Shown here: piece after piece, positions 3,011 through 29,408 of the stretch
Layout of the letters: each line of letters opens with the position of its first letter
How positions within the stretch are numbered: position 1 is the stretch's first letter
DNA from: a virus
Taxonomy: Duplodnaviria; Heunggongvirae; Uroviricota; Caudoviricetes
Direction: 5' to 3' (one strand)
Virus record (IMG/VR): IMGVR_UViG_2541047928_000016
DNA length: 35,398 nt
Translations under genes and position numbers: made by a program
The notes under the pieces: model-generated
Database searches by the model: none
Seen by the model: only the letters and a program-made list of their open reading frames with translations
What the model was told of the DNA's origin: nothing

Positions 3011-3443
3011 ACCGGACTCCTCCTGCGATCCCTTCTGATACTGTCATCAGCATTACGTCATCCTCCGTCATGTCCGCCACATCCGGGGAAGCGGGGATAA
3101 CTTTATTCCCGTCCGGACCAAAGCGGACGCCTCCGGCAAGCCCTGCCGCTTTCTGCATCAGCACATCATCTTCAGGCTCTTCGTCAGCCTCACACCGATT
3201 CAGCAGACTGAAATCCAGCGGATGCATCTCCGGATCGCTGAAAAACAGGCTGAGCACGGTGTACGTCAGCCCGGAAAAGTGCATATCCAGCAGAACATCA
3301 TGAAAATAATGGGTACTGTAAAAACGGTGCCAGTCGGCATACTCCGTGGATGACATCCCGGCAAGCATGGCGCGCCAGTCGGGTCGCCCCATCTCACGCG
3401 CCAGTTTCAGGGCAAAACTCAGCTCACCGTCGAACACTTTCCC
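3003..3443 (-). CDS. T: T segment of the G-T tail assembly chaperone, expressed by -1 frameshift from G
   Basis: Overlapping ORF in -1 frame relative to G, beginning at the GGGAAAG slip site and ending 8 nt inside H; no canonical start of its own (track start is GTG). Confidence 0.75.
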   Translation of the reverse strand, partial: GKVFDGELSFALKLAREMGRPDWRAMLAGMSSTEYADWHRFYSTHYFHDVLLDMHFSGLTYTVLSLFFSDPEMHPLDFSLLNRCEADEEPEDDVLMQKAAGLAGGVRFGPDGNKVIPASPDVADMTEDDVMLMTVSEGIAGGVRYG

Positions 3444-8421: not shown

Positions 8422-9115
8422 CCGGGACTGCAGTGTCTCCCGGACGTCATCCGGAAGATGGCTGTAGGGGTTGCCATCCACCTTATGGCTGCCGCTGTAA
8501 ATCAGCGTGATTTCCACGCCCTGTTTCTCCAGCGCAGCACCGTAATTACTGTGAGCCATCATGACGCCGATGGAGCCTGTCCGGGCGGTCTGCGTGACCA
8601 GACGCCGGGAGGCGGCGCTGGCAAGCAGCTGACCTGCACTGCAGTTCATGTCGTTGGCCAGCGCCCATACAGGTTTTATGTCACGCACACGGGCGATGAT
8701 GTCAGCGCAGTCAAATGCCCCTGCCACCATTCCACCGGGCGTGTCCATATCGAGCAGAATGCCGTCCACCATCGGGTCACTGGCAGCCTGTTGCAGACGG
8801 GCGATAATGCCGTTGTAACCGGTCATCCCCGAATAAGGCTGCAGCGCCCGCGTCCGGCTGACCAGCGTACCGGACACCGGCAGCACGGCGATGCCGTTCA
8901 TGACCTGATAACTGCGGGCCTGTCGTGGTCCGTCACCATCACCGGCTAACGCCAGCGTCGCGGGTGCCTCCTGGGCAGTCAGGCTGTCGCCGGACACCGC
9001 ATCCGTCAGGCGGCTGATCCCTAGCTGGCCTGCAAGCGCACAAAAGAAAACCCGCGCATAGGCGGGTTCAAGCATCAGCGGCTCATTAAAGGCCATGCTG
9101 GCAATATGCGGGAGA

Positions 9116-9135
<20 letters not shown>
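7816..9135 (-). CDS. C: Head maturation protease / scaffold fusion protein C (439 aa), probable GTG start
   Basis: ORF contains VTAELRNLPHIASMAFNEPLMLEPAYARVFF...; codon at 9133-9135 is GTG on minus strand; length 439 aa matches lambda gpC; start overlaps B by 20 nt. Confidence 0.85.
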
Positions 9136-12816
<3,681 letters not shown>

Positions 12817-12842
<26 letters not shown>

Positions 12843-13362
12843 TCAGCAACCCCGGTATCAGTTCATCCAGCGCGGCTGCTTTGTTCATGGCTTTGATGAT
12901 ATCCCGTTTCAGGAAATCAATATGCCGGTTATCCAGCTCAGGAAAACGTCGCTGCACCGACAGAGGAATACCGTCGAGAATACTGGATATTTCCCTTGCT
13001 ATACGCGACAGCACGAAAGTACAGAATGCGGTTTCCACCACTTCAGCCGATTCTTTGGCATTTTTCAGTTCCTGCGCCGTCGCCTGAGCACGAGTCAGGC
13101 GATGGCGCTCAAATTCAAGTGTTCCGGGGTGAAGATCTGCCTCGCTGGCCAGCCGCAGTTCTTCAACCTCCCGGCGCAGCTTTTCGCTCTCAATTTCAGC
13201 ATCCCTTTCGGCATACCATTTTATGACGGCGGCAGAGTCATAAAGCACCTCATTACCCTTGCCACCGCCTCGCAGAACGGGCATTCCCTGCTCCTGCCAG
13301 TTCTGAATGGTACGGATACTCGCACCGAAAATATCAGCCAGCTGCTTTTTGTTGACTTCCAT
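12817..13362 (-). CDS. Nu1: Terminase small subunit Nu1 (181 aa)
   Basis: 181-aa ORF MEVNKKQLADIFGASIRTIQNWQEQGMPVLRGGGKGNEVLYDSAAVIKWYAERDAEIE...; winged-HTH N-terminus; overlaps A start. Confidence 0.95.
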
Positions 13363-13575
13363 TGTTCATTCCCCGGACAAAAACAGAGAAAGGAAACGAC
13401 AGAGGCCAAAAAGCCCGTTTTCAGCACCTGTCGTTTCCTTTCTTTTCAGGGGGTGTTTTAAATAAAAACATTAAGTTACGGCGAAGAAGAACGGAAACGC
13501 CTTAAACCGGAAAATTTTCATAAATAGCGAAAACCCGCGAGGTCGCCGCCCCGTAACCTGTCGGATCACCGGAAA
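13363..13575 (-). other. cos region: cosB between Nu1 start and cosN; 12-nt cohesive-end sequence (cosN) at about 13540-13551; cosQ-side flank beyond
   Basis: Plus strand aaacccgcgaggtcgccgcccc is the reverse complement of the lambda left-end GGGCGGCGACCTCGCGGGTTT; flanking sequence ...cgtaacctgtcggatcaccggaaagg matches my recall of the lambda right end. Confidence 0.8.
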
Positions 13576-13750
13576 GGACCCGTAAAGTGATAATGATTAT
13601 CATCTACATATCACAACGTGCGTGGAGGCCATCAAACCACGTCAAATAATCAATTATGACGCAGGTATCGTATTAATTGATCTGCATCAACTTAACGTAA
13701 AAACAACTTCAGACAATACAAATCAGCGACACTGAATACGGGGCAACCTC

Positions 13751-13984
13751 ATGTCAACGAAGAACAGAACCCGCAGAACAACAACCCGCAACATCCGCTT
13801 TCCTAACCAAATGATTGAACAAATTAACATCGCTCTTGAGCAAAAAGGGTCCGGGAATTTCTCAGCCTGGGTCATTGAAGCCTGCCGCCGGAGACTGTGC
13901 TCAGAAAAAAGAGTTTCTTCTGAAGCAAACAAAGAAAAGAGTGACATTACTGAATTGCTCAGAAAACAGGTCAGACCAGATTGA
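13751..13984 (+). CDS. Small basic protein with predicted ribbon-helix-helix (Arc/MetJ-like) fold (77 aa); possibly YnfO-like
   Basis: ORF MSTKNRTRRTTTRNIRFPNQMIEQINIALEQKGSGNFSAWVIEACRRRL...; Arg/Thr-rich N-tail then beta-strand/helix pattern typical of RHH; weak RBS. Confidence 0.55.
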   Translation: MSTKNRTRRTTTRNIRFPNQMIEQINIALEQKGSGNFSAWVIEACRRRLCSEKRVSSEANKEKSDITELLRKQVRPD

Positions 13985-14041
13985 AGCAATTTAGATAATC
14001 GTGCAGACTACGCCCCCTCATATCACATGGAAGGTTTATCT

Positions 14042-14452
14042 ATGGATCAGGTAGTCATTTTTAAACAAATATTTGATAAAGTTCGAAACGATTTAAACTA
14101 TCAATGGTTTTATTCTGAGCTAAAACGTCACAATGTCTCACATTACATTTACTATTTAGCCACAGAGAATGTTCATATTGTATTAAAAAATGATAATACA
14201 GTGTTATTAAAGGGCCTAAAAAACATTGTGTCTGTCAAATTTTCAAAGGATAGGCATCTTATAGAAACGACCTCTAATAAGCTGAAATCCAGAGAGATCA
14301 CATTTCAGGAATACAGAAGAAACCTTGCTAAAGCAGGAGTTTTTCGGTGGGTTACAAATATCCACGAACAAAAAAGATATTACTATACCTTTGATAATTC
14401 ATTACTATTTACTGAAAGCATCCAGAAAACTACACAGATCTTACCACTCTAA
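14042..14452 (+). CDS. ydfO: YdfO-like protein (DUF1398 family), 136 aa
   Basis: Start placed at second ATG (14042) with AAGG 7 nt upstream; translation [52 protein letters not shown]... as I recall Qin YdfO. Confidence 0.7.
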
Positions 14453-15179: not shown

Positions 15180-15450
15180 GATGTTACCGTAGTATGTGAG
15201 TATCCATCGAATAGACACCAAGCAAAAAAGCTCCCGAAGGAGCCTTCATTTTCACTTTTTTAAATCCAACGACAGACGGCTGGCATTTAAGTATTGTGAA
15301 ATATTATCAAATGTAATCATCATTGATTTACAAAAGATACATTTTGCCCCGAAAGGATTCATGTCAGAAACATCAAAAGATGATGTTCTATACTGGGAAC
15401 CATGACAACACGGGCATCTAAAGTGAATATGGTTTGTAATATTGTCTACC

Positions 15451-15663
15451 TCAAAGCGCCACTACATGAACAGCGGCAGGACCTTTAGGTCCGTTCTCAA
15501 TACCAAATTCAACTTCCTGATTCTCAGTTAATGTTTTGAAATCGTTGCTCTGAATTGCTGAGAAATGGACAAACACATCTTTGCTGCCATCTTTCGGCGT
15601 GATGAAACCAAAACCTTTTTCAGGGTTAAACCATTTCACTAAACCAGTCATTTTGTTAGACAT
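15451..15663 (-). CDS. cspI: Cold shock protein, CspA family (70 aa), CspI-like
   Basis: [70 protein letters not shown]; RNP1 motif KGFGFI and RNP2 VFVHF. Confidence 0.9.
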
Positions 15664-16024
15664 AATTATTACCTTTTGAAGAAATTAGCCCTTGGGCAGA
15701 ATGGTCCGAAAAAAATATCAGAGAGAAAAACCAACAAGGAAATCTCAAGAGGTACAAATAATAAAATTATAACAATGACTGCTTCAGATAAATTTGTAAC
15801 AAACCAGAACACCATTAACGCATGATTAACCACCCATAGCAAGGATTACTTTTGTAAAGAAAAACACAGCAATGAAAGAATAGCTTTATTTATTAATAAA
15901 ACGTGTCATTCTGATTAAGACCTTTTATCTTACCCTTAAGATTTCAGGAATTTTGGCTCATGGAAGAGTCCTTTTTATTTAAATTTTACATTCCGCGATG
16001 TAAATGTTCCGATTTAATATTACC

Positions 16025-18056: not shown

Positions 18057-18333
18057 TTGTGGTGCTTTTTGTGGGAGTCATCCACTTACGCACTTTGTTT
18101 TGCCATGCCAGCAGTTAGCTTCTGCTGTAAAACTATTCATGCAGCAAACCTGCACTTCACCACAATGGTTAGCATACTTTTCCTGATTAAGATTTTGCCA
18201 AATATGCTAGCCATTGTTTCATGTATTGGACCTCCTTACTTTTTATTAAAGAGATCCAATATTCACTACTCTGTCCGTATCTCTACTCAGGCATCAGCCT
18301 TCTTCGTTATCGTATACAGACGAGCGATGAATT

Positions 18334-18549
18334 TTAATCAGTAATGATGACATTTGCTGCTGCAGGACCTTTAGCACCACTCTCTATAGAGAAGGTAACC
18401 TTTTGACCTTCAAATAAGGTTCGATAATTATCATTCTGAATCGCAGAAAAATGCACAAACACATCTTTACTACCATCAACAGGAGAAATAAAGCCGAAAC
18501 CTTTATCAGCGTTAAACCATTTTACTAAACCAGTCATTTTATTTGACAT
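18334..18549 (-). CDS. cspB: Cold shock protein, CspA family (71 aa), CspB-like
   Basis: [71 protein letters not shown]; long upstream untranslated region (18550-18700) typical of cold-shock mRNAs. Confidence 0.9.
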
Positions 18550-18849
18550 TCTACATTCCTTAACTTGAGCCTTTCGGCATAAATGGTTTGCATAACAGAA
18601 ACGACTTCGTACTTAATTGGAGAGACTCAAAGAAGGAATAAGTGAATAACACCTGAAATGAGAACTGCTTTAGTAAACTACTTCGTATATCGTCTGTTCT
18701 TCAAACCGACGCAATCATTAACGCATAGTTGAACATATGAAGCAATGTTTATTTTAGACATCCAGCCATCTTCAACCCCATCAAAAAACTATAGCTTTCT
18801 TCAGGAACGTGTGTATAGTGCGCCAAGTTATCAGTATTAAGGAATTTTT

Positions 18850-22113: not shown

Positions 22114-22269
22114 TTACTCCTCAGGTTCGTAAGCTGTGAAGACAGCGACCTCCGTCTGGCCGGTTCGGATTCGTACCTCGCAGAGGTCTTTCCTCGTTAC
22201 CAGTGCCGTCACTATGACGGTTAAACAGATGACGATCAGGGCGATTAACATCGCCTTTTGCTGCTTCAT
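22114..22269 (-). CDS. hokD: Hok-family type I toxin (51 aa), HokD/RelF-like; below ORF-track cutoff
   Basis: Manual translation MKQQKAMLIALIVICLTVIVTALVTRKDLCEVRIRTGQTEVAVFTAYEPEE; single TM helix then conserved Hok periplasmic tail; 71 nt downstream of relE. Confidence 0.85.
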   Translation of the reverse strand: MKQQKAMLIALIVICLTVIVTALVTRKDLCEVRIRTGQTEVAVFTAYEPEE

Positions 22270-22340
22270 AGCCTGCTTCTCCTGTCAACGCAAAGCAGAA
22301 GTGTCACCTTCGGTGCGAAACAGAGATGTCATGCTTTGGT

Positions 22341-22628
22341 TCAGAGAATGCGTTTGACCGCCTCGCTATATACTTCCGAGCGTTCTCTTTTCCCAACAGA
22401 AATCACGAAAACGACAACTTTCTCGTCTATAACCTGGTATACAAGGCGATAGCCTGAAGACCGGAGCTTAATCTTGTAACAATCAGGCATACCACGGAGC
22501 TTGTTTGCTTCAATCCGGGGTGACTCAAGTACTTCAACCAGCTTCTTTTTCAACTGTTCACGTACCGTCGAGCCCAGCTTTCGCCATTCCTTTAGTGCCC
22601 GCTCGTCAAAATCCAGAAAATACGCCAT
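22341..22628 (-). CDS. relE: RelE mRNA interferase toxin (95 aa)
   Basis: MAYFLDFDERALKEWRKLGSTVREQLKKKLVEVLESPRIEANKLRGMPDCYKIKLRSSGYRLVYQVIDEKVVVFVISVGKRERSEVYSEAVKRIL. Confidence 0.95.
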   Translation of the reverse strand: MAYFLDFDERALKEWRKLGSTVREQLKKKLVEVLESPRIEANKLRGMPDCYKIKLRSSGYRLVYQVIDEKVVVFVISVGKRERSEVYSEAVKRIL

Positions 22629-22867
22629 CAGAGTTCATCCAGCGTCACACGTACTGGCTTAGGATTACGAAGCCGTTCTTTCACTATCTCCACAAGTTCA
22701 GCATCTTCATCACTCAGGAGTGTCTGTTTGAACGGCAAGCGTTCATTGTCAGCGATATACTCGAGCATGAGACGAAGCGCTTCAGAAGGAGTTACACCCA
22801 TTTTTTCAAGCGCGGCGTAAGAACGCGCTTTAAGTTCATCGTCAATACGCAGGTTAATGCTACCCAT
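22628..22867 (-). CDS. relB: RelB antitoxin (79 aa), RHH DNA-binding
   Basis: MGSINLRIDDELKARSYAALEKMGVTPSEALRLMLEYIADNERLPFKQTLLSDEDAELVEIVKERLRNPKPVRVTLDEL; stop overlaps relE start. Confidence 0.95.
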   Translation of the reverse strand: MGSINLRIDDELKARSYAALEKMGVTPSEALRLMLEYIADNERLPFKQTLLSDEDAELVEIVKERLRNPKPVRVTLDEL

Positions 22868-22879
22868 GTCTTACACCTC

Positions 22880-22904
22880 TTGTAATTACAAATGTCATTA
22901 CAAG
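22880..22904 (-). promoter_or_regulatory. Candidate relO operator: palindromic hexad repeats TTGTAATTACAA and TGTCATTACAAG just upstream of relB
   Basis: Seen directly in sequence 13-37 nt upstream of the relB start codon. Confidence 0.45.
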
Positions 22905-23197
22905 TATCGCACTACAACATGCTTAGGGCAAGTCACGAAGGAAGTCAGAAAGTAGTCGTAAGAACGGTGATCACTGTCCGCTTTGTGCCAGGAGCAGCCA
23001 TTGCTAAGTCCATCCTGTATTGTGCAGGTCAGCTCGTTTTTAAAGAGTCCGGCCATCATCTTACTGGTACAGACACCATATACTTTGTGACGGTCAGGCT
23101 ACATATGCACAACTCAACTTATTCATCTATTTTTTGCTTTAGCATGTCAGTGTTGCTTTCTCGTCGGCGGGTGAGCGGTGACCTGACCTGTCGATAA
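22892..23197 (+). CDS. Hypothetical ORF (101 aa), YdfV-like by position; doubtful
   Basis: ATG-initiated ORF divergent from relB but its start lies inside the relO operator and the translation is low-complexity; retained only because an ORF of this size is annotated at this position in Qin as I recall. Confidence 0.3.
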   Translation: MSLQVSHYNMLRASHEGSQKVVVRTVITVRFVPGAAIAKSILYCAGQLVFKESGHHLTGTDTIYFVTVRLHMHNSTYSSIFCFSMSVLLSRRRVSGDLTCR

Positions 23198-23349
23198 AGG
23201 AACGTAGCACGTTTTATGCAACACCCGCATGCGGCAGAAAATTATTGCCGAACGTTTACCCCTGTCAACAAGCTTTACTTTCTGAGGCGCGCCAGCCCGC
23301 GAGGAAAACAATCTGAACATCAAACAATTAATGACACAAGAAATACGAT

Positions 23350-23376
23350 TAAAGATTTTTTTGTGCATGCCGATAG
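23350..23376 (+). promoter_or_regulatory. Sigma-28 (FliA) class 3 flagellar promoter: TAAAGATT, 11-nt spacer, GCCGATAG
   Basis: Plus strand taaagatttttttgtgcatgccgatag, 24 nt upstream of flxA ATG; matches consensus TAAAGTTT-N11-GCCGATAA at 13 of 16 positions. Confidence 0.55.
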
Positions 23377-23399
23377 TGCTTTTTTAAAAGGAGAAATCT

Positions 23400-23732
23400 A
23401 TGTCTGTCACAATTCAGGGAAATACCTCAACCGTTATTTCAAACAACTCCGCCCCGGAAGGAACATCAGAAATAGCCAAAATCACAAGACAAATTCAGGT
23501 GCTGACTGAAAAGCTTGGGAAAATCTCATCGGAAGAGGGGATGACGACACAGCAGAAAAAAGAAATGGCTGCATTGGTACAGAAGCAAATTGAAAGCCTC
23601 AGGGCTCAACTGGAGCAGTTGTTAAGGCAGCAGGCAGAGAAAAAGAATAAAGACGCGACAGTTCAGCCTGATAAAAAAGAAGAGAAAAAAGACGATACAA
23701 ATACCGCTGGCACCATTGATATTTACGTCTAA
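23400..23732 (+). CDS. flxA: FlxA (FliA-regulated protein), 110 aa
   Basis: MSVTIQGNTSTVISNNSAPEGTSEIAKITRQIQVLTEKLGKISSEEGMTTQQKKEMAALVQKQIESLRAQLEQLLRQQAEKKNKDATVQPDKKEEKKDDTNTAGTIDIYV; AAGGAG RBS. Confidence 0.85.
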   Translation: MSVTIQGNTSTVISNNSAPEGTSEIAKITRQIQVLTEKLGKISSEEGMTTQQKKEMAALVQKQIESLRAQLEQLLRQQAEKKNKDATVQPDKKEEKKDDTNTAGTIDIYV

Positions 23733-23746
23733 GTGACAGCCGTATT

Positions 23747-23769
23747 GTGGCCCTCATCGGGCCACTTTT
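23747..23769 (+). terminator. Intrinsic terminator after flxA (GTGGCCC-TCATC-GGGCCAC then TTTT)
   Basis: Perfect 7-bp stem seen 15 nt after the flxA stop. Confidence 0.55.
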
Positions 23770-24059
23770 CGCCATCAGCCTTTTCTTTAAAGACATATTA
23801 TCTTTGTATCATTTCTGATAGTTAACATTACAAGATATAAGTAATGGACGCACTCCCAATTAGTCTATTTAAATCGCCACGAGTTTAACTGACAACCCAT
23901 GATCAATTATGAATTGCAACTATTTCTGTAGTCACTTTTGTGGGGACAGTCCACAAAACTGCCAACTTCCGCTTCTTGCTCTTAGCGGACATTAGCATAG
24001 GCTATTTACCATAACGCCTCATTACGCGCACCGCCCAGACTGACTCAGCGCGTTTCTGG

Positions 24060-25570
24060 CATATCCCCGGTAAAACAAGTAACAAACCACCCGAAAATGA
24101 ACACCAGAAACGCGACTTAAGAATCTACCCTATGAATGGATATGCACTCAACCGAATCGATCTTGGTTTCAATCTATTTTATCGGGATCAGGCTTCTTTT
24201 TAGGTAACTTCGGGGGCTTAACTTGCTGATGACTTTGCGTTCGGCGCGTAAGCCAGGGATGGTCAGCTTTAGATTTAACATAGTATTTTGAGCGTAAATC
24301 AATACGGGCATTATCCACTCGTTCATGGACACTCTTTTCATCATCCAGTGGTATAGGCTCCGGGCCATCAACATACTTTTCCCAGCCCAGCGCTTTCCCG
24401 TCATACAGAACGTTAATTTCACCGTCAAAGTTCTCACATACAGTAACAACTGAATGCCTAAGTCGATATCCCCGGCCCTCACTGCGTACCTGAAACGCAC
24501 TGCTTTTGTACTGGAAAGTGAGATTTTTAGACAGAACGCGCTTCGCCTGTAGGCTGAAGATATAACCCAGTTCCTCTTCAGAATGGTGCACATCAAGATG
24601 AGCATTATCAGTAGTACGAGGCGACGTAGCGAACCGGTTGTTATAGGCTTCAATAAAGGTCGGCAACCATGCATTTGCTGTTTCAATATCACTGATATTC
24701 TGAAGCCGCATTTCTTTGACCAGCCTGTCCTGTAGTGTCTGATTGGCGCGCTCTACCCGCCCTTTTGCCTGCGGGCTGTTGGCATGGATTGGCTCGATGC
24801 CCAGTGTCTTTATCGCACGAGTGAACTGGGTCAGCTCACCTTCCCGCTCTGGGTTATTTACCCTGAATATACTGTGTCTATCAGAGTAGAGAGCGAGCGG
24901 TACGCCATGATCATTAAGGTAACCCCGGAGGGTTTCCATGTAAGCCCGGGTTGTTTCAGCAGGCACAAAACGCAACGCCATCAACGCACTGGTGGCATCA
25001 TCAATGAAAACGATCAGTGTACATCTGGGGCCTCGATTTTCAAACCAGTCATGAGGTGAGCCATCAATCTGGATCAGTTCACCGTAAGATGGTCGTCGCA
25101 TGCGGCGTTGATATATACGGGCAATTTTACGACGGCGTTCACGCCATAACCCCTCTTCTATCATCCACTTTCTGAGAGTTTCAACGGATAAAGATAAACC
25201 GTGTATCTCGCGCAATTTTTCGCACGCAAACGTAGGTCCAAAATCAGCGTAACGGCCTTTGAGGAGTGAAATTACTGTTGCTCTGAATTCAGTAGAAAAG
25301 GAATTATTAGGACGCTTTCCACGTCGGTGGGAAACCAGACCAGAAGGCCCTTCATTTCTATACCGTTGCACCAGACGTTTAACCTGCCGAATAGAAATGC
25401 CAATGCGTGCCGCAGCTTGTTCCTGAGTAATATGTCGATTAATTGACTCCTGAATAATCTGAAGTCGGTGGAGTTCCTTATGACTCATCGTAACAGTCTC
25501 TTTGATCATGAAAAATCCCCCAGAGAATTGTCTGGGGACATTTTAGAATGGTTCAAAGGGGACATTACAG
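24060..25570 (-). mobile_element. Probable insertion sequence carrying a single DDE transposase; ends not resolved (no clean terminal inverted repeats or target-site duplication found)
   Basis: Single transposase gene interrupting the phage early region between flxA and the replication genes; candidate right end TGTAATGTCCCC at 25558-25569; boundaries approximate. Confidence 0.3.
24169..25509 (-). CDS. DDE-type transposase with N-terminal HTH and integrase-core (rve) domain, 446 aa; IS481/ISNCY-like
   Basis: MIKETVTMSHKELHRLQIIQESINRHITQEQAAARIGISIRQVKRLVQRYR... then LIQIDGSPHDW ... YSDRHSIF ... conserved acidic residues and Lys/Pro-rich C-tail; family-level call is from memory. Confidence 0.8.
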   Translation of the reverse strand: MIKETVTMSHKELHRLQIIQESINRHITQEQAAARIGISIRQVKRLVQRYRNEGPSGLVSHRRGKRPNNSFSTEFRATVISLLKGRYADFGPTFACEKLREIHGLSLSVETLRKWMIEEGLWRERRRKIARIYQRRMRRPSYGELIQIDGSPHDWFENRGPRCTLIVFIDDATSALMALRFVPAETTRAYMETLRGYLNDHGVPLALYSDRHSIFRVNNPEREGELTQFTRAIKTLGIEPIHANSPQAKGRVERANQTLQDRLVKEMRLQNISDIETANAWLPTFIEAYNNRFATSPRTTDNAHLDVHHSEEELGYIFSLQAKRVLSKNLTFQYKSSAFQVRSEGRGYRLRHSVVTVCENFDGEINVLYDGKALGWEKYVDGPEPIPLDDEKSVHERVDNARIDLRSKYYVKSKADHPWLTRRTQSHQQVKPPKLPKKKPDPDKID

Positions 25571-25962
25571 CTTGGTGTTAACAATAGCCTGCTTCTCCTT
25601 GCCTTCCGGCACTCGCGACAGATTATGTTTAGACGACTGTCGTAGCGACGTATTTCTCCGTCAGGTAATGACCAGATAAGGTCCGGATCAACCACAGCAG
25701 GTTTCTTCACCTTTGCCCTCGAGAGTTTTTTGCGGGCGTTTTGCCAGTCCTTACGCGCCTGTTCAGACGGGAATAACCCGTAACCAGAGCTGTATACATC
25801 GCCACTGGCAACCAGCTCTCTGGCCAGAACGCTCATCAGATATCTTGTTGCCCCAGTTTTAGCTTCCAGTTGTCGTAACGTCTCGCGCCCACTCTGGCGT
25901 ACGAGTTCCACCACCTGCCCTTTAATTTTTTCCCGCTCTTCTTGTGTAAAAACTTTTGCCAC
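25543..25962 (-). CDS. Hypothetical protein (139 aa) downstream of the replication initiator, in the position of a helicase loader; C-terminus may be altered by the adjacent IS
   Basis: GTG start with strong AGGAGG 5 nt upstream; basic Arg/Lys-rich C-terminal half; last codons fall within the candidate IS end. Confidence 0.55.
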   Translation of the reverse strand: MAKVFTQEEREKIKGQVVELVRQSGRETLRQLEAKTGATRYLMSVLARELVASGDVYSSGYGLFPSEQARKDWQNARKKLSRAKVKKPAVVDPDLIWSLPDGEIRRYDSRLNIICRECRKARRSRLLLTPSCNVPFEPF

Positions 25963-26002
25963 AAGTCCTCCTGAACATTACTTTATACCCTAAAATCAAC
26001 AC

Positions 26003-26968
26003 TTATCCCCTGAAACCAGGCGGAATTTCTGTATCCGGTTCAGAAATATGATTCACACAACGCTGTACAGGTGAACGTCCCAGGCGGATGACCAGTTCGT
26101 CCCATTTTTCGCGGAGTTTTGACGGGCTCATGATGTTTTTTACCCAGAATTGATCTCGCTGTACCCGACCAAACATTTCGCAAATTTGTCTGTGGCTTCT
26201 GCCATCCAGCATCCGCATTGTGCGCACGTCATTGGCCCAGGCTGTCCAGTTAGGCTCTTTTGGTCGCATGATCTCTCCATCGTCGCTGGCAGCCTGTTCG
26301 TAAAGGTTCACGATCCGCCCCCAAATCCACTGCGCACACGCCAAATCCTCCCTGCTACCCCACTGGCGTTTTTTCGCACTAAACACAACCGCGTCGGGGT
26401 TCCGGGTTAAAAAATCCTGTTCAGCGGTCTGCGGGTCCGGTTGCGAAGCTTCCGGACGAAAAGTGTTTTTATTCTCTGTAGTAATCTCTGTTGTATTCTC
26501 TGTAAGATCATCAGGCCATTTTGACCCGATGACATTGGGTCGTTTTGAACCAATGGAGCGTTTCATTTTGACCTCTTCCATCGTGTCATTTTGACCTGAT
26601 GGAGCGGCGCATTTTAAACCGATGGATTCGCTCAATTTGCCACCATCTAAAAGCTCGCTCCCGTAGTTGATCGTGTAGAAATTGGTCATATCGCGCTTTG
26701 ATTTATTGAGCTTTTCACAACGCAAAAGCCCCAGCGTTTTCAGACTTGCAAACGCGCGCTTTAACGTTGACTCTGACCAGAATGGGAACTGTTCCAGCCA
26801 TTGTTCCGTTGTGTTGTAAATCCAGCGAACACCATCACATTCCATGCCGGAATTGGTATCTCTCAACCAGTAATGCAACTGCTGCAACACAATGGCTTCA
26901 TTTAAGCCAATCTTCATCGCAAGCTGTGTGTTTATAACCAGTGGGCGTTCAGCAAAAAGAAGGCTCAT
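26003..26968 (-). CDS. Phage replication initiator (O-like replisome organiser), 321 aa from ATG 26968 (track TTG start at 27022)
   Basis: N-terminal HTH-like region MSLLFAERPLVINTQLAMKIGLNEAIVLQQLHYWL...; iteron array embedded mid-gene as in lambda O; position after the Cro/CII-slot genes. Confidence 0.75.
   Translation of the reverse strand: MSLLFAERPLVINTQLAMKIGLNEAIVLQQLHYWLRDTNSGMECDGVRWIYNTTEQWLEQFPFWSESTLKRAFASLKTLGLLRCEKLNKSKRDMTNFYTINYGSELLDGGKLSESIGLKCAAPSGQNDTMEEVKMKRSIGSKRPNVIGSKWPDDLTENTTEITTENKNTFRPEASQPDPQTAEQDFLTRNPDAVVFSAKKRQWGSREDLACAQWIWGRIVNLYEQAASDDGEIMRPKEPNWTAWANDVRTMRMLDGRSHRQICEMFGRVQRDQFWVKNIMSPSKLREKWDELVIRLGRSPVQRCVNHISEPDTEIPPGFRG
26461..26650. repeat. Candidate origin of replication: about 6 degenerate direct repeats (iterons) of period about 22-23 bp (ATTTTGACC..GATGGAGCG) plus 3 copies of TCTCTGT, inside the O-like gene
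   Basis: Seen directly: cattttgacccgatgacattgggtcg / ttttgaaccaatggagcg / tttcattttgacctcttccatcg / tgtcattttgacctgatggagcg / gcgcattttaaaccgatggattcg. Confidence 0.6.
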
Positions 26969-27470
26969 AATTCCATCCAGCTTTTTGTTGGTATTGCTGT
27001 CGATACGCAAGTTTGAAAGCAATTGCTTTTTCTATAAGTTCGTCAGTTTCACGATCCACTACGGCAGGATCAGCAAAAAGCAGTCCGGACTCCACCACAT
27101 CGCCATATTCTTTGTTTAACCCGGCGATCATGTACGTGATGCTTTTTCCGTCATTAATTTCACGATACAACCTGAAATCATTAATCCGAATAGCCTCCAT
27201 AATTGCAGGCACTAGCGCCGTGAACTTTTCACGCTTATCCCTGGTGTCGATAGCCTTCCAGCGTTCGAATATCTTCACTCGATTAACGCCAAGTGCTCGC
27301 TGATCAACCGCGCCACCTTCATCTGTGACACGCTGAACATCGATGTTCGGGCGCTCTTTCAAAGCCCAGAATGCTTCAGTGATTAATATCGTCGCCTGCT
27401 CCTGTGTCATTCCTGGTCGACATATCCAGGCATCCAGAGCCTCACGAGCCTGTTCAGGAGTGATTTTCAT
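26949..27470 (-). CDS. Hypothetical protein (173 aa) in the cII position between the cro-like gene and the replication initiator
   Basis: ATG at 27468-27470; MKITPEQAREALDAWICRPGMTQEQATILITEAFWALKERPNIDVQRVTDEGGAVDQRALGVNRVKIFERWKAIDTRDKREKF...; no family recognised. Confidence 0.6.
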   Translation of the reverse strand: MKITPEQAREALDAWICRPGMTQEQATILITEAFWALKERPNIDVQRVTDEGGAVDQRALGVNRVKIFERWKAIDTRDKREKFTALVPAIMEAIRINDFRLYREINDGKSITYMIAGLNKEYGDVVESGLLFADPAVVDRETDELIEKAIAFKLAYRQQYQQKAGWNYEPSFC

Positions 27471-29350: not shown

Positions 29351-29408
29351 TTTCTGGTGACGTTTGGCGGTATCAGTTTTACTCCGTGACTGCTCTGCCG
29401 CCCTTTTT
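29351..29408 (+). ncRNA. dicF: DicF small RNA (ftsZ/manX-targeting antisense sRNA) with terminator hairpin and U-tract
   Basis: tttctggtgacgtttggcggtatcagttttactccgtgactgctctgccgcccttttt matches my recall of K-12 DicF; 170 nt upstream of dicB. Confidence 0.8.

Follow-up and report, generated by a model that had tools for sequence, protein, structure and literature searches.

The window analysed here is a 35,398-nt stretch of DNA (IMG/VR virus record IMGVR_UViG_2541047928_000016) that represents an Escherichia coli Qin-type cryptic prophage, and this report concerns its positions 22283-25583, where a transposase gene, flxA, ydfV and the relBE toxin-antitoxin genes lie between two terminal inverted repeats, next to the toxin gene hokD. 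An earlier note on this DNA had described an insertion sequence (IS) lying between flxA and the replication genes. Its recognition of a mobile-element transposase between the early genes and the rest of the prophage stands, but flxA lies inside the element, and we consider it very probable that the whole segment forms a single IS1202-family transposon, 3301 bp long and structurally intact, set into the hok/sok locus of the prophage. The element is laid out as left inverted repeat (IRL), transposase, flxA, ydfV, relB, relE and right inverted repeat (IRR), and together with its immediate surroundings comprises the following features:

25584-25612, minus strand: 29-nt remnant of the sok/mok-hok leader, the remainder of which was lost in a 1.9-kb deletion
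25584-25598, minus strand: target-site duplication, copy at the IRL, GGAGAAGCAGGCTAT; the last 15 nt of the sok/mok-hok leader, from the hok ribosome-binding site through the 'AT' of the ATG
25558-25583, minus strand: IRL, TGTTAACACCAAGCTGTAATGTCCCC, beginning with the 5'-TGT of the family
25534-25557, minus strand: subterminal repeat, presumed second transposase-binding site, in which the AATGTCCCC motif recurs at a distance of 24 nt inwards
25517-25538, minus strand: hairpin TCCCCAGA-CAATTC-TCTGGGGG, then ATTTTTC and ATG
24169-25509, minus strand: transposase, 446 aa, intact; HTH_28/HTH_29/HTH_32 and rve_3 (Pfam), NF033594
23964-23995, minus strand: end of the conserved transposase module, a palindrome AATGTCCGC-N12-GCGGAAGTT that is like the inner half of an old IRR
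23400-23732, plus strand: flxA, a passenger between IRL and IRR that is missing from a transposon-free relative (L083)
22892-23197, plus strand: ydfV, an annotated passenger open reading frame (ORF) without a Pfam match
22628-22867, minus strand: relB antitoxin gene, passenger; Pfam RelB, E = 1e-32
22341-22628, minus strand: relE toxin gene, passenger; Pfam ParE_toxin, E = 2e-13; stop codon 32 nt before the IRR
22283-22308, minus strand: IRR, GGTGACACTTCTGCTTTGCGTTGACA in transposase orientation, 19 of 26 positions identical to the inverted IRL
22268-22282, minus strand: target-site duplication, copy at the IRR, GGAGAAGCAGGCTAT; overlaps both the ribosome-binding site and the start codon of hokD, of which it includes the first two bases
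22114-22269, minus strand: hokD (relF), the targeted type I toxin gene, HOK_GEF E = 1e-23; now split from its sok/mok leader

To define the extent of the element, the window was compared with about 80 loci (numbered L...) that encode relatives of the transposase. On the transposase gene's 5' side homology breaks off abruptly at 25583 in over 25 independent copies from many genera, each of which reads TGTTAACACCAAGCTGTAATGTCCCC, and the subterminal AATGTCCCC motif is conserved in relatives from Scandinavium, Hahella and Chromatiales. On the 3' side homology ends raggedly among independent copies, at 23964-23978, and the cargo differs beyond. A right end at 23730-24168 was rejected because this boundary is ragged and holds half an IRR-like palindrome; a repeat finder run for an inverted copy of the end near the transposase stop (23730-24168) gave only chance-level pairs. 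The IRR at 22283-22308 is backed immediately on its inside by a second IRR-like repeat, GACATCTCTGTTTCGC, and it resembles the genuine right-hand termini of the family's simple members, as found in Rhabdochlamydiaceae (GCGGACATTTCTATTTTGCGTTGACA), Chromatiales (GGGGACACTTCTGAATTGGATTGACA) and Hahella. Both ends have TGT...ACA termini and a common inner block, TGTC(C/A)CC, as is found in the imperfect repeats of this family (about 24-29 bp, starting 5'-TGT). The earlier note had found neither clean terminal repeats nor a target duplication, yet both exist: the IRL lies inside the interval that it had considered, and the IRR and the second copy of the duplication lie about 1.8 kb outside it (22268-22308). 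The repeats were missed because the right end is 1.9 kb past the transposase stop.

The two copies of GGAGAAGCAGGCTAT match at 15/15 positions, and this 15-mer occurs exactly twice in the window; a match of any kind was obtained in 0 of 100 shuffles. Upstream of hokD the window reads ...GGTGACACTTCTGCTTTGCGTTGACA followed directly by GGAGAAGCAGGCTATG, so that hokD now stands 3.3 kb from its leader, behind relBE. In the transposon-free related prophage L083 the leader runs directly into hokD, and in-silico removal of the element and one copy of the duplication from an undeleted relative (L002) leaves a sequence collinear with the sok-hokD region of L083, with 631/650 positions identical. The alignment to a relative without the element, which the earlier note had proposed as a check, places the insertion at the ribosome-binding site and start codon of hokD. 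Given the matching ends, the duplication and the restored empty site, we take 22283-25583 to be the mobile unit, with flxA, ydfV, relB and relE as its passengers; both this structure and the insertion event are shown by the sequence.

The identity of the target follows from the Rfam sok model (RF01794), which scores 99.8-110 bits in L002, L016 and L083 (99.8 in L002) and which ends exactly at the IRL in eight loci (L002, L005, L009, L012, L016, L021, L023 and L038). The flank outside the IRL is similar in unrelated replicons and was recognised by Rfam as the sok/hok leader (RF01794). The ideas that this hok-like 5' flank belongs to the IS itself, or that it arose as a long, imperfect copy of the 3' end of the transposase module, were rejected, as the flanks diverge by about 20% between loci that have an IS of 99% identity, and in view of the Rfam match. 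In the proposed course of events, one transposition at the ribosome-binding site and start codon of the prophage hok gene duplicated the 15 bp GGAGAAGCAGGCTAT, cut hokD from its sok antisense and mok leader and placed it directly downstream of relBE, giving the order relB-relE-hokD. Transposase would bind paired repeats at each end (AATGTCCCC twice at the IRL, two GACAnnTCTGnTTnGC repeats at the IRR), with cleavage probably at the TGT/ACA termini and target cuts staggered by 15 bp. The right end finishes in TTGACA (22283-22288), an outward-facing -35-like hexamer that abuts the hokD ribosome-binding site.

The 446-aa transposase with helix-turn-helix (HTH) and rve domains that the earlier note had called was borne out by the Pfam domains of the ORF and by a score of 465 bits against the NCBIfam model NF033594, 'ISNCY family transposase' (cut-off 250). 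Its catalytic motifs are IQID149, FID170D171, LYSD210, GRVE254 and Q261 (Q at E+7), and they carry the signature of the IS1202 family, that is DDE with extra D residues and Q at E+7 (bioRxiv 10.1101/2022.12.17.520857). All 446 residues are identical to those of a copy on a Klebsiella michiganensis plasmid; identity is 94% over 446 residues to copies in Enterobacter, Citrobacter and Kluyvera, about 80% in Scandinavium and 62% to a multicopy IS of Hahella. With further genera included, full-length matches range from 94 to 100%. An exact-protein lookup returned only Qin contexts, and when solved structures were searched by sequence, the core of a retroviral integrase was the sole match, and a weak one (E = 0.01). 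PGAP labels the gene 'incomplete, missing C-terminus' of an IS1202-like element of the ISEsa1 family and names its last 49 codons (24169-24318, minus strand) ydfW; this split of an intact gene into a pseudogene and ydfW is an artefact, because the NCBIfam model spans residues 17-377 only and K-12 has a fragment named ydfW. The simple relatives (the ISs of Rhabdochlamydiaceae, Chromatiales and Hahella) make 15-16-bp duplications, within the range reported for the ISTde1 subgroup (bioRxiv 10.1101/2022.12.17.520857), and with its perfect 15 bp the window element belongs to this ISTde1/ISEsa1-like subgroup, the makers of 15-17-bp target duplications. A simple IS of the family has 1.3-1.75 kb and the transposase as its sole gene; the window element has 3301 bp and four passengers between the transposase gene and the IRR, and so fits the passenger-carrying members that have been reported for the family.

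The palindrome with a T-tract that had been noticed just before the transposase ATG is the hairpin at 25517-25538, which a terminator scan flags as an 8-bp stem with a 6-nt loop and a tail, ATTTTTC, that runs into the ATG. It pairs the inner presumed binding site with the G-rich region of the ribosome-binding site before the transposase start codon. Folded singly, 8 of 9 family members have an equivalent hairpin with different stem sequences, and L020 has a weaker one only. A consensus-structure tool run on an automatic alignment of the pre-ATG region found no common fold, so that covariation is not formally supported; this is because the automatic alignment put the hairpin stems out of register. 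The hairpin would hide the ribosome-binding site of the transposase and may also terminate transcripts that enter from the early operon of the phage. This operon reads in the same direction as the transposase gene. Transcription from outside would then not drive transposase synthesis, and keeping outside transcripts from yielding transposase would be the most likely role of the structure.

Among the passengers, relB lies directly upstream of relE and overlaps it, as expected of a relBE type II toxin-antitoxin pair, and the accessions of the two proteins are identical to those of K-12 RelB and RelE. Proteins with these K-12 accessions are also encoded on K. pneumoniae plasmid p1864-1 and C. sakazakii plasmid pGW1. 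The module formed by relBE and the IRR (22280-23000) is also found in Kluyvera, Leclercia and other genomes, 90-99% identical and again downstream of the transposase module, but separated from it by different DNA. Always adjoining the IRR, relBE could serve as an addiction module that stabilises the element.

Other copies bear on both the structure and the target. One E. coli genome holds a second, 3300-bp copy at another hok gene with a 16-bp duplication, TGGAGGGGCTATGATG; the flanks of its two copies have been exchanged by recombination, so that the TGGAGGGGCTATGATG pair is split between them. On the C. sakazakii IncHI2 plasmid pGW1 (L198, 3621-9713) a version of 6093 bp is set into a hok gene with the perfect duplication GGAGAAGAAGGCCAT and carries cytochrome b and CDF transporter genes, relBE and an inserted ISEsa2. 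The p1864-1 copy has 4661 bp and the duplication GGAGAAAAAGGCTAT, also at a hok gene, its left copy trimmed to 11 bp by IS26. Cytochrome b and cation-diffusion transporter genes are seen in the plasmid versions L198 and L095/L096 (K. pneumoniae), which have acquired other ISs (ISEsa2, ISEc52). The Kluyvera loci L015 and L023 have like ends and relBE with other cargo. In Scandinavium hiltneri (L036, 2927-7201) a 4275-bp relative lies away from hok with a perfect 15-bp duplication, CATTAAGCTGCAAAT; its cargo comprises GrpB and a hexapeptide transferase, with a TacA/GNAT-toxin pair next to the right end. The toxin-antitoxin cargo by the right end is relBE in most copies and tacAT in one from Scandinavium, and such a module next to the IRR may turn out to recur. 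Both ends together with the Qin duplication were seen in 32 prophage contigs of IMG/VR, the elements having lengths of 3274, 3299-3303, 2261 or 4655 bp.

Three further loci yielded side observations. In L084 (pEB5_OXA48, 9029-14100) the transposase module stands beside a hok leader and is followed by the nickel-resistance genes ncrABCY, which are candidate cargo only, no right end having been found within 10 kb. An Rfam isrO match of 58.8 bits in L015 (2837-2950, minus strand) covers the first 24 nt of the IRL and may be due to chance or to isrO bordering such elements. In Leclercia (L020, 2891-2952) a right end is followed head to tail by a left end, with a 10-bp spacer, GAAGGCTATG, between them, like tandem insertions or a circle junction.

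At hok loci the duplications all have their first bases in the same place, the GGAG of the ribosome-binding site. Relatives with other cargo occupy the same 15-bp position of at least 3 other hok genes, each with its own matching duplication, so that every locus has a 15-mer of its own on both sides (GGAGAAGCAGGCTAT, GGAGAAGAAGGCCAT, GGAGAAAAAGGCTAT and (T)GGAGGGGCTATGATG); the L019 copy adjoins the same 15-mer but is turned the other way round. An element spread through homology of its flanks is unlikely to leave locus-specific 15-mers that match on both sides, and we infer that target preference, for the 15-mer spanning the hok ribosome-binding site and ATG, is the better reading. The preference is not absolute, as the Scandinavium relative and L074 sit elsewhere. 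In its stronger form, towards which we lean only slightly, an IS1202-family lineage of the Enterobacteriaceae with a toxin-antitoxin pair by its right end would specifically target this ribosome-binding-site and start segment of hok genes in prophages and plasmids, uncoupling hok from sok/mok and bringing it under relBE control.

It is possible, if rather unlikely, that the structure is as proposed and that the recurrence at hok reflects homologous recombination between hok loci, or survival under selection, in place of target choice. The leaders and coding regions of hok are homologous between loci, recombination between copies is seen, distant relatives such as that of Hahella insert at unrelated sites, and enterobacterial copies L036, L074, L008 and L015 lie off hok. 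Transfer through homologous flanks would, however, carry the duplication of the donor along, whereas each locus has its own 15-mer, all starting from GGAG, and the inverted placement of L019 at the same 15-mer also speaks for target choice.

We regard as very improbable the proposal that two unrelated events are involved, in which an old relBE element left a solo right end by hokD and an IS without a right end later landed nearby. That the transposase and relBE-IRR modules are joined by different cargo in different replicons, and that a palindrome like half an IRR closes the transposase module, would be in keeping with it. Against this, the identical 15-bp repeats flank exactly the IRL and the IRR and excision in silico restores sok-hokD, a 3300-bp unit is found at a second hok gene with a 16-bp duplication of its own, and pGW1 and p1864-1 show the same pairing of the IRL with relBE-IRR between their own matching duplications.

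Several points weigh against a single intact transposon. The IRL and IRR differ at 7/26 positions, mobility is predicted from the sequence, and E. coli chromosomes hold the element essentially as a single copy at one locus (median 1 place per genome). A 3301-bp copy in L126 (1345-4645) lies off hok between flanks that share only 6 bp, CGCCTT (37 nt of right flank), and the plasmid copy L095 is without a clean duplication. Finally, the roles given above to the hairpin and to relBE are inferred ones.

The remaining question concerns the 139-aa gene that the earlier note had placed in the position of a helicase loader, together with the deletion that shaped it:

25543-25962, minus strand: chimeric 139-aa ORF, residues 1-120 from DUF977, 121-126 from the hok-leader remnant, 127-139 and the stop codon from the IRL
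25603-25612, no strand assigned: junction of the 1.9-kb deletion, in the microhomology CTT(C/T)CGGCAC, from a three-way alignment of the window and two L002 segments

The ORF does end inside the terminal repeat of the element, its stop codon (25543-25545) lying 38 nt inside the left end at 25583. Its only Pfam match is DUF977, NCBIfam gives none and the intact homologue has 140 aa, so that a loader of the lambda-P/DnaC type was rejected, and with it the suggestion that the gene is a much shortened lambda-P-type loader. Relatives with the same C-terminus and no IS had been named as what would speak against truncation; the relatives have a native DUF977 protein of 140 aa that is identical to the window ORF at 117/121 positions through residue 121 and then diverges, and about 140 aa are found at the DUF977 position in all relatives seen. 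The intact protein covers 1-134/134 of the Pfam model (101.5 bits) versus 1-115/134 (79.1 bits) for the window ORF. The native C-terminus has thus been lost, as had been supposed, and 19 other residues stand in its place, but the cause is a separate deletion and not the insertion. In undeleted L002 the space between DUF977 and the IRL is taken up by genes for a methyltransferase, a DUF7167 protein and a hypothetical protein, then by a small ORF and the complete sok/hok leader, and the window switches from leader-proximal to DUF977 sequence 20-29 bp outside the IRL. A 1.9-kb deletion between 10-nt microhomologies removed the genes from DUF977 to the leader and fused codon 120 to the leader and IRL. 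An IS-mediated adjacent deletion was rejected as the cause of the fusion, as the junction lies 20-29 bp outside the IRL and in microhomology. Of about 789 E. coli genomes in which the transposase module occurs, about 106 have this deletion in common.

The least probable reading of all is that an IS of about 1.6 kb, with the transposase as its only gene, went in between flxA and the replication genes, cutting a helicase-loader gene and disabling replication: the ORF does end inside the IRL, the ISfinder entry for ISEsa1 gives 1609 bp and no target duplication (PMC10132070) and many copies cease to be homologous at some 1.6 kb from the IRL, but 23964-24168 shows half a right-end repeat only, the true IRR and the perfect 15-bp duplication lie at 22268-22308, undeleted relatives hold 1.9 kb of genes and the hok leader between a natively 140-aa DUF977 gene and the IRL, and in an empty-site search 0 of 5117 matching records join the flxA-side flank to the hok-leader flank, as is expected once flxA is known to lie inside the element.

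With regard to the prophage, bases 23700-26100 of the window are 100% identical to several E. coli chromosomes, where the annotated flanks are ydfT, ydfU, rem, hokD, relE, relB, ydfV and flxA on one side and DUF977, a hypothetical protein, YdaT, Cro/CI, repressor and dicB on the other. Rfam matches in the window, as expected for Qin, are DicF (29352-29403, plus strand) and cspA-type thermoregulator leaders (15424-15808 and 18318-18710, minus strand). The suggestion that replication is disabled finds no sign in the sequence: the upstream 339-aa putative initiator or replication gene (26003-27022, minus strand) is intact and without a Pfam family. The last 20 residues of its product weakly resemble the C-terminus of the primosomal protein DnaT (E = 0.006). 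The transposon sits between the replication genes and the DUF968-Q region, on the path of early transcription towards Q, and if it harms the phage, reduced activation of late genes would be more plausible than a replication defect. For the prophage the upshot is modest, no replication gene being hit by the transposon.

The Qin prophage of K-12 (flxA-ydfV-relB-relE-hokD, ydfW, ydfX) has the same element at the same site. Still present there are the IRR, the duplication on the hokD side, relBE, ydfV and flxA, along with ydfW, which corresponds to the final 185 nt of the transposase gene. Gone are the IRL and most of that gene, and also DUF977, the initiator gene and a portion of ydaT; the window, by contrast, retains both ends and a transposase that is intact. 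In K-12 a later deletion, which starts within the transposase gene (window position 24353) and reaches into ydaT, left ydfW and ydfX. The K-12 relBE genes are the reference type II toxin-antitoxin system and hokD/relF is a classic Hok toxin; their vehicle, with ends, duplication and empty site, can now be defined. Orphan annotations of K-12 would be explained as well, with ydfW as a transposase tail, hokD as a gene without sok/mok, and flxA and ydfV as passengers. If this is true, the textbook E. coli relBEF operon is a product of transposition, in which one addiction module rides on a transposon that homes to another. The same backbone bears metal-ion transporter genes on IncHI2 and IncF plasmids, and nickel-resistance genes follow the module on pEB5_OXA48, which makes the element relevant to the movement of plasmid cargo. 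According to a review, relBE came from plasmids by horizontal transfer and was "integrated" beside hokD; no vehicle is named (PMC6379469, citing Ramisetty and Santhosh 2016). We found no description of this transposon in the literature on hokD, relBE, ISEsa1 and ISNCY, in a search whose coverage fell short of all journals.

In two surveys the IS1202 family is defined by a signature in the transposase and by TGT ends, and is divided into three subgroups according to duplication length; passengers occur in some members, and specific targeting (of dif/xrs) is known only for the 5-bp-duplication subgroup (PMC10132070; bioRxiv 10.1101/2022.12.17.520857). The window element is like the ISTde1 subgroup, which includes ISEsa1, in its HTH and DDE transposase (two extra D residues, Q at E+7), TGT repeats of about 26 bp, inner block and 15-bp duplication. 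It differs from the ISTde1-type IS of 1.3-1.7 kb and a single gene in its 3.3 kb, its four passenger ORFs, a right end 1.9 kb past the transposase stop and its recurrence at hok starts. In the published table ISEsa1 has 1609 bp, a 439-aa transposase, inverted repeats of 15/22, no duplication and no known target (PMC10132070); the window transposase has 446 aa against 439, a comparison with ISEsa1 made through this table and the PGAP label. For the ISEsa1-like group, in which the two surveys had seen no duplication and no target of ISEsa1, the present element would supply real ends as well as a duplication of 15 bp and a candidate for a specific target. The ISAba32/ISAjo2 subgroup of the same family likewise shows oriented insertion by a short conserved site without Tn7-type helpers, and some of its members have passengers (ISKpn21, for example), but its duplications are of 5-6 bp and it inserts 5 bp from dif-like sites of XerC/D, in contrast to 15 bp and hok here.

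Pedersen and Gerdes, in 1999, reportedly described insertions of IS150 and IS186 at hokA, hokC and hokE of K-12, downstream of the hok reading frames. These likewise disrupt chromosomal hok loci, but they belong to other families and have no cargo, whereas the window element strikes the ribosome-binding site and ATG and brings a type II toxin-antitoxin pair. The TnsB-type ends of Tn7 have TGT...ACA termini and multiple binding repeats per end, as seen here (a resemblance noted in PMC10132070), but Tn7 makes a 5-bp duplication, and the window element makes one of 15 bp and is without genes for TnsA, TnsC, TnsD or TnsE. An IS in a prophage is by itself ordinary; what lies behind this one is a member of a known IS family in a well-defined form that carries passengers and is a candidate for a new target specificity.

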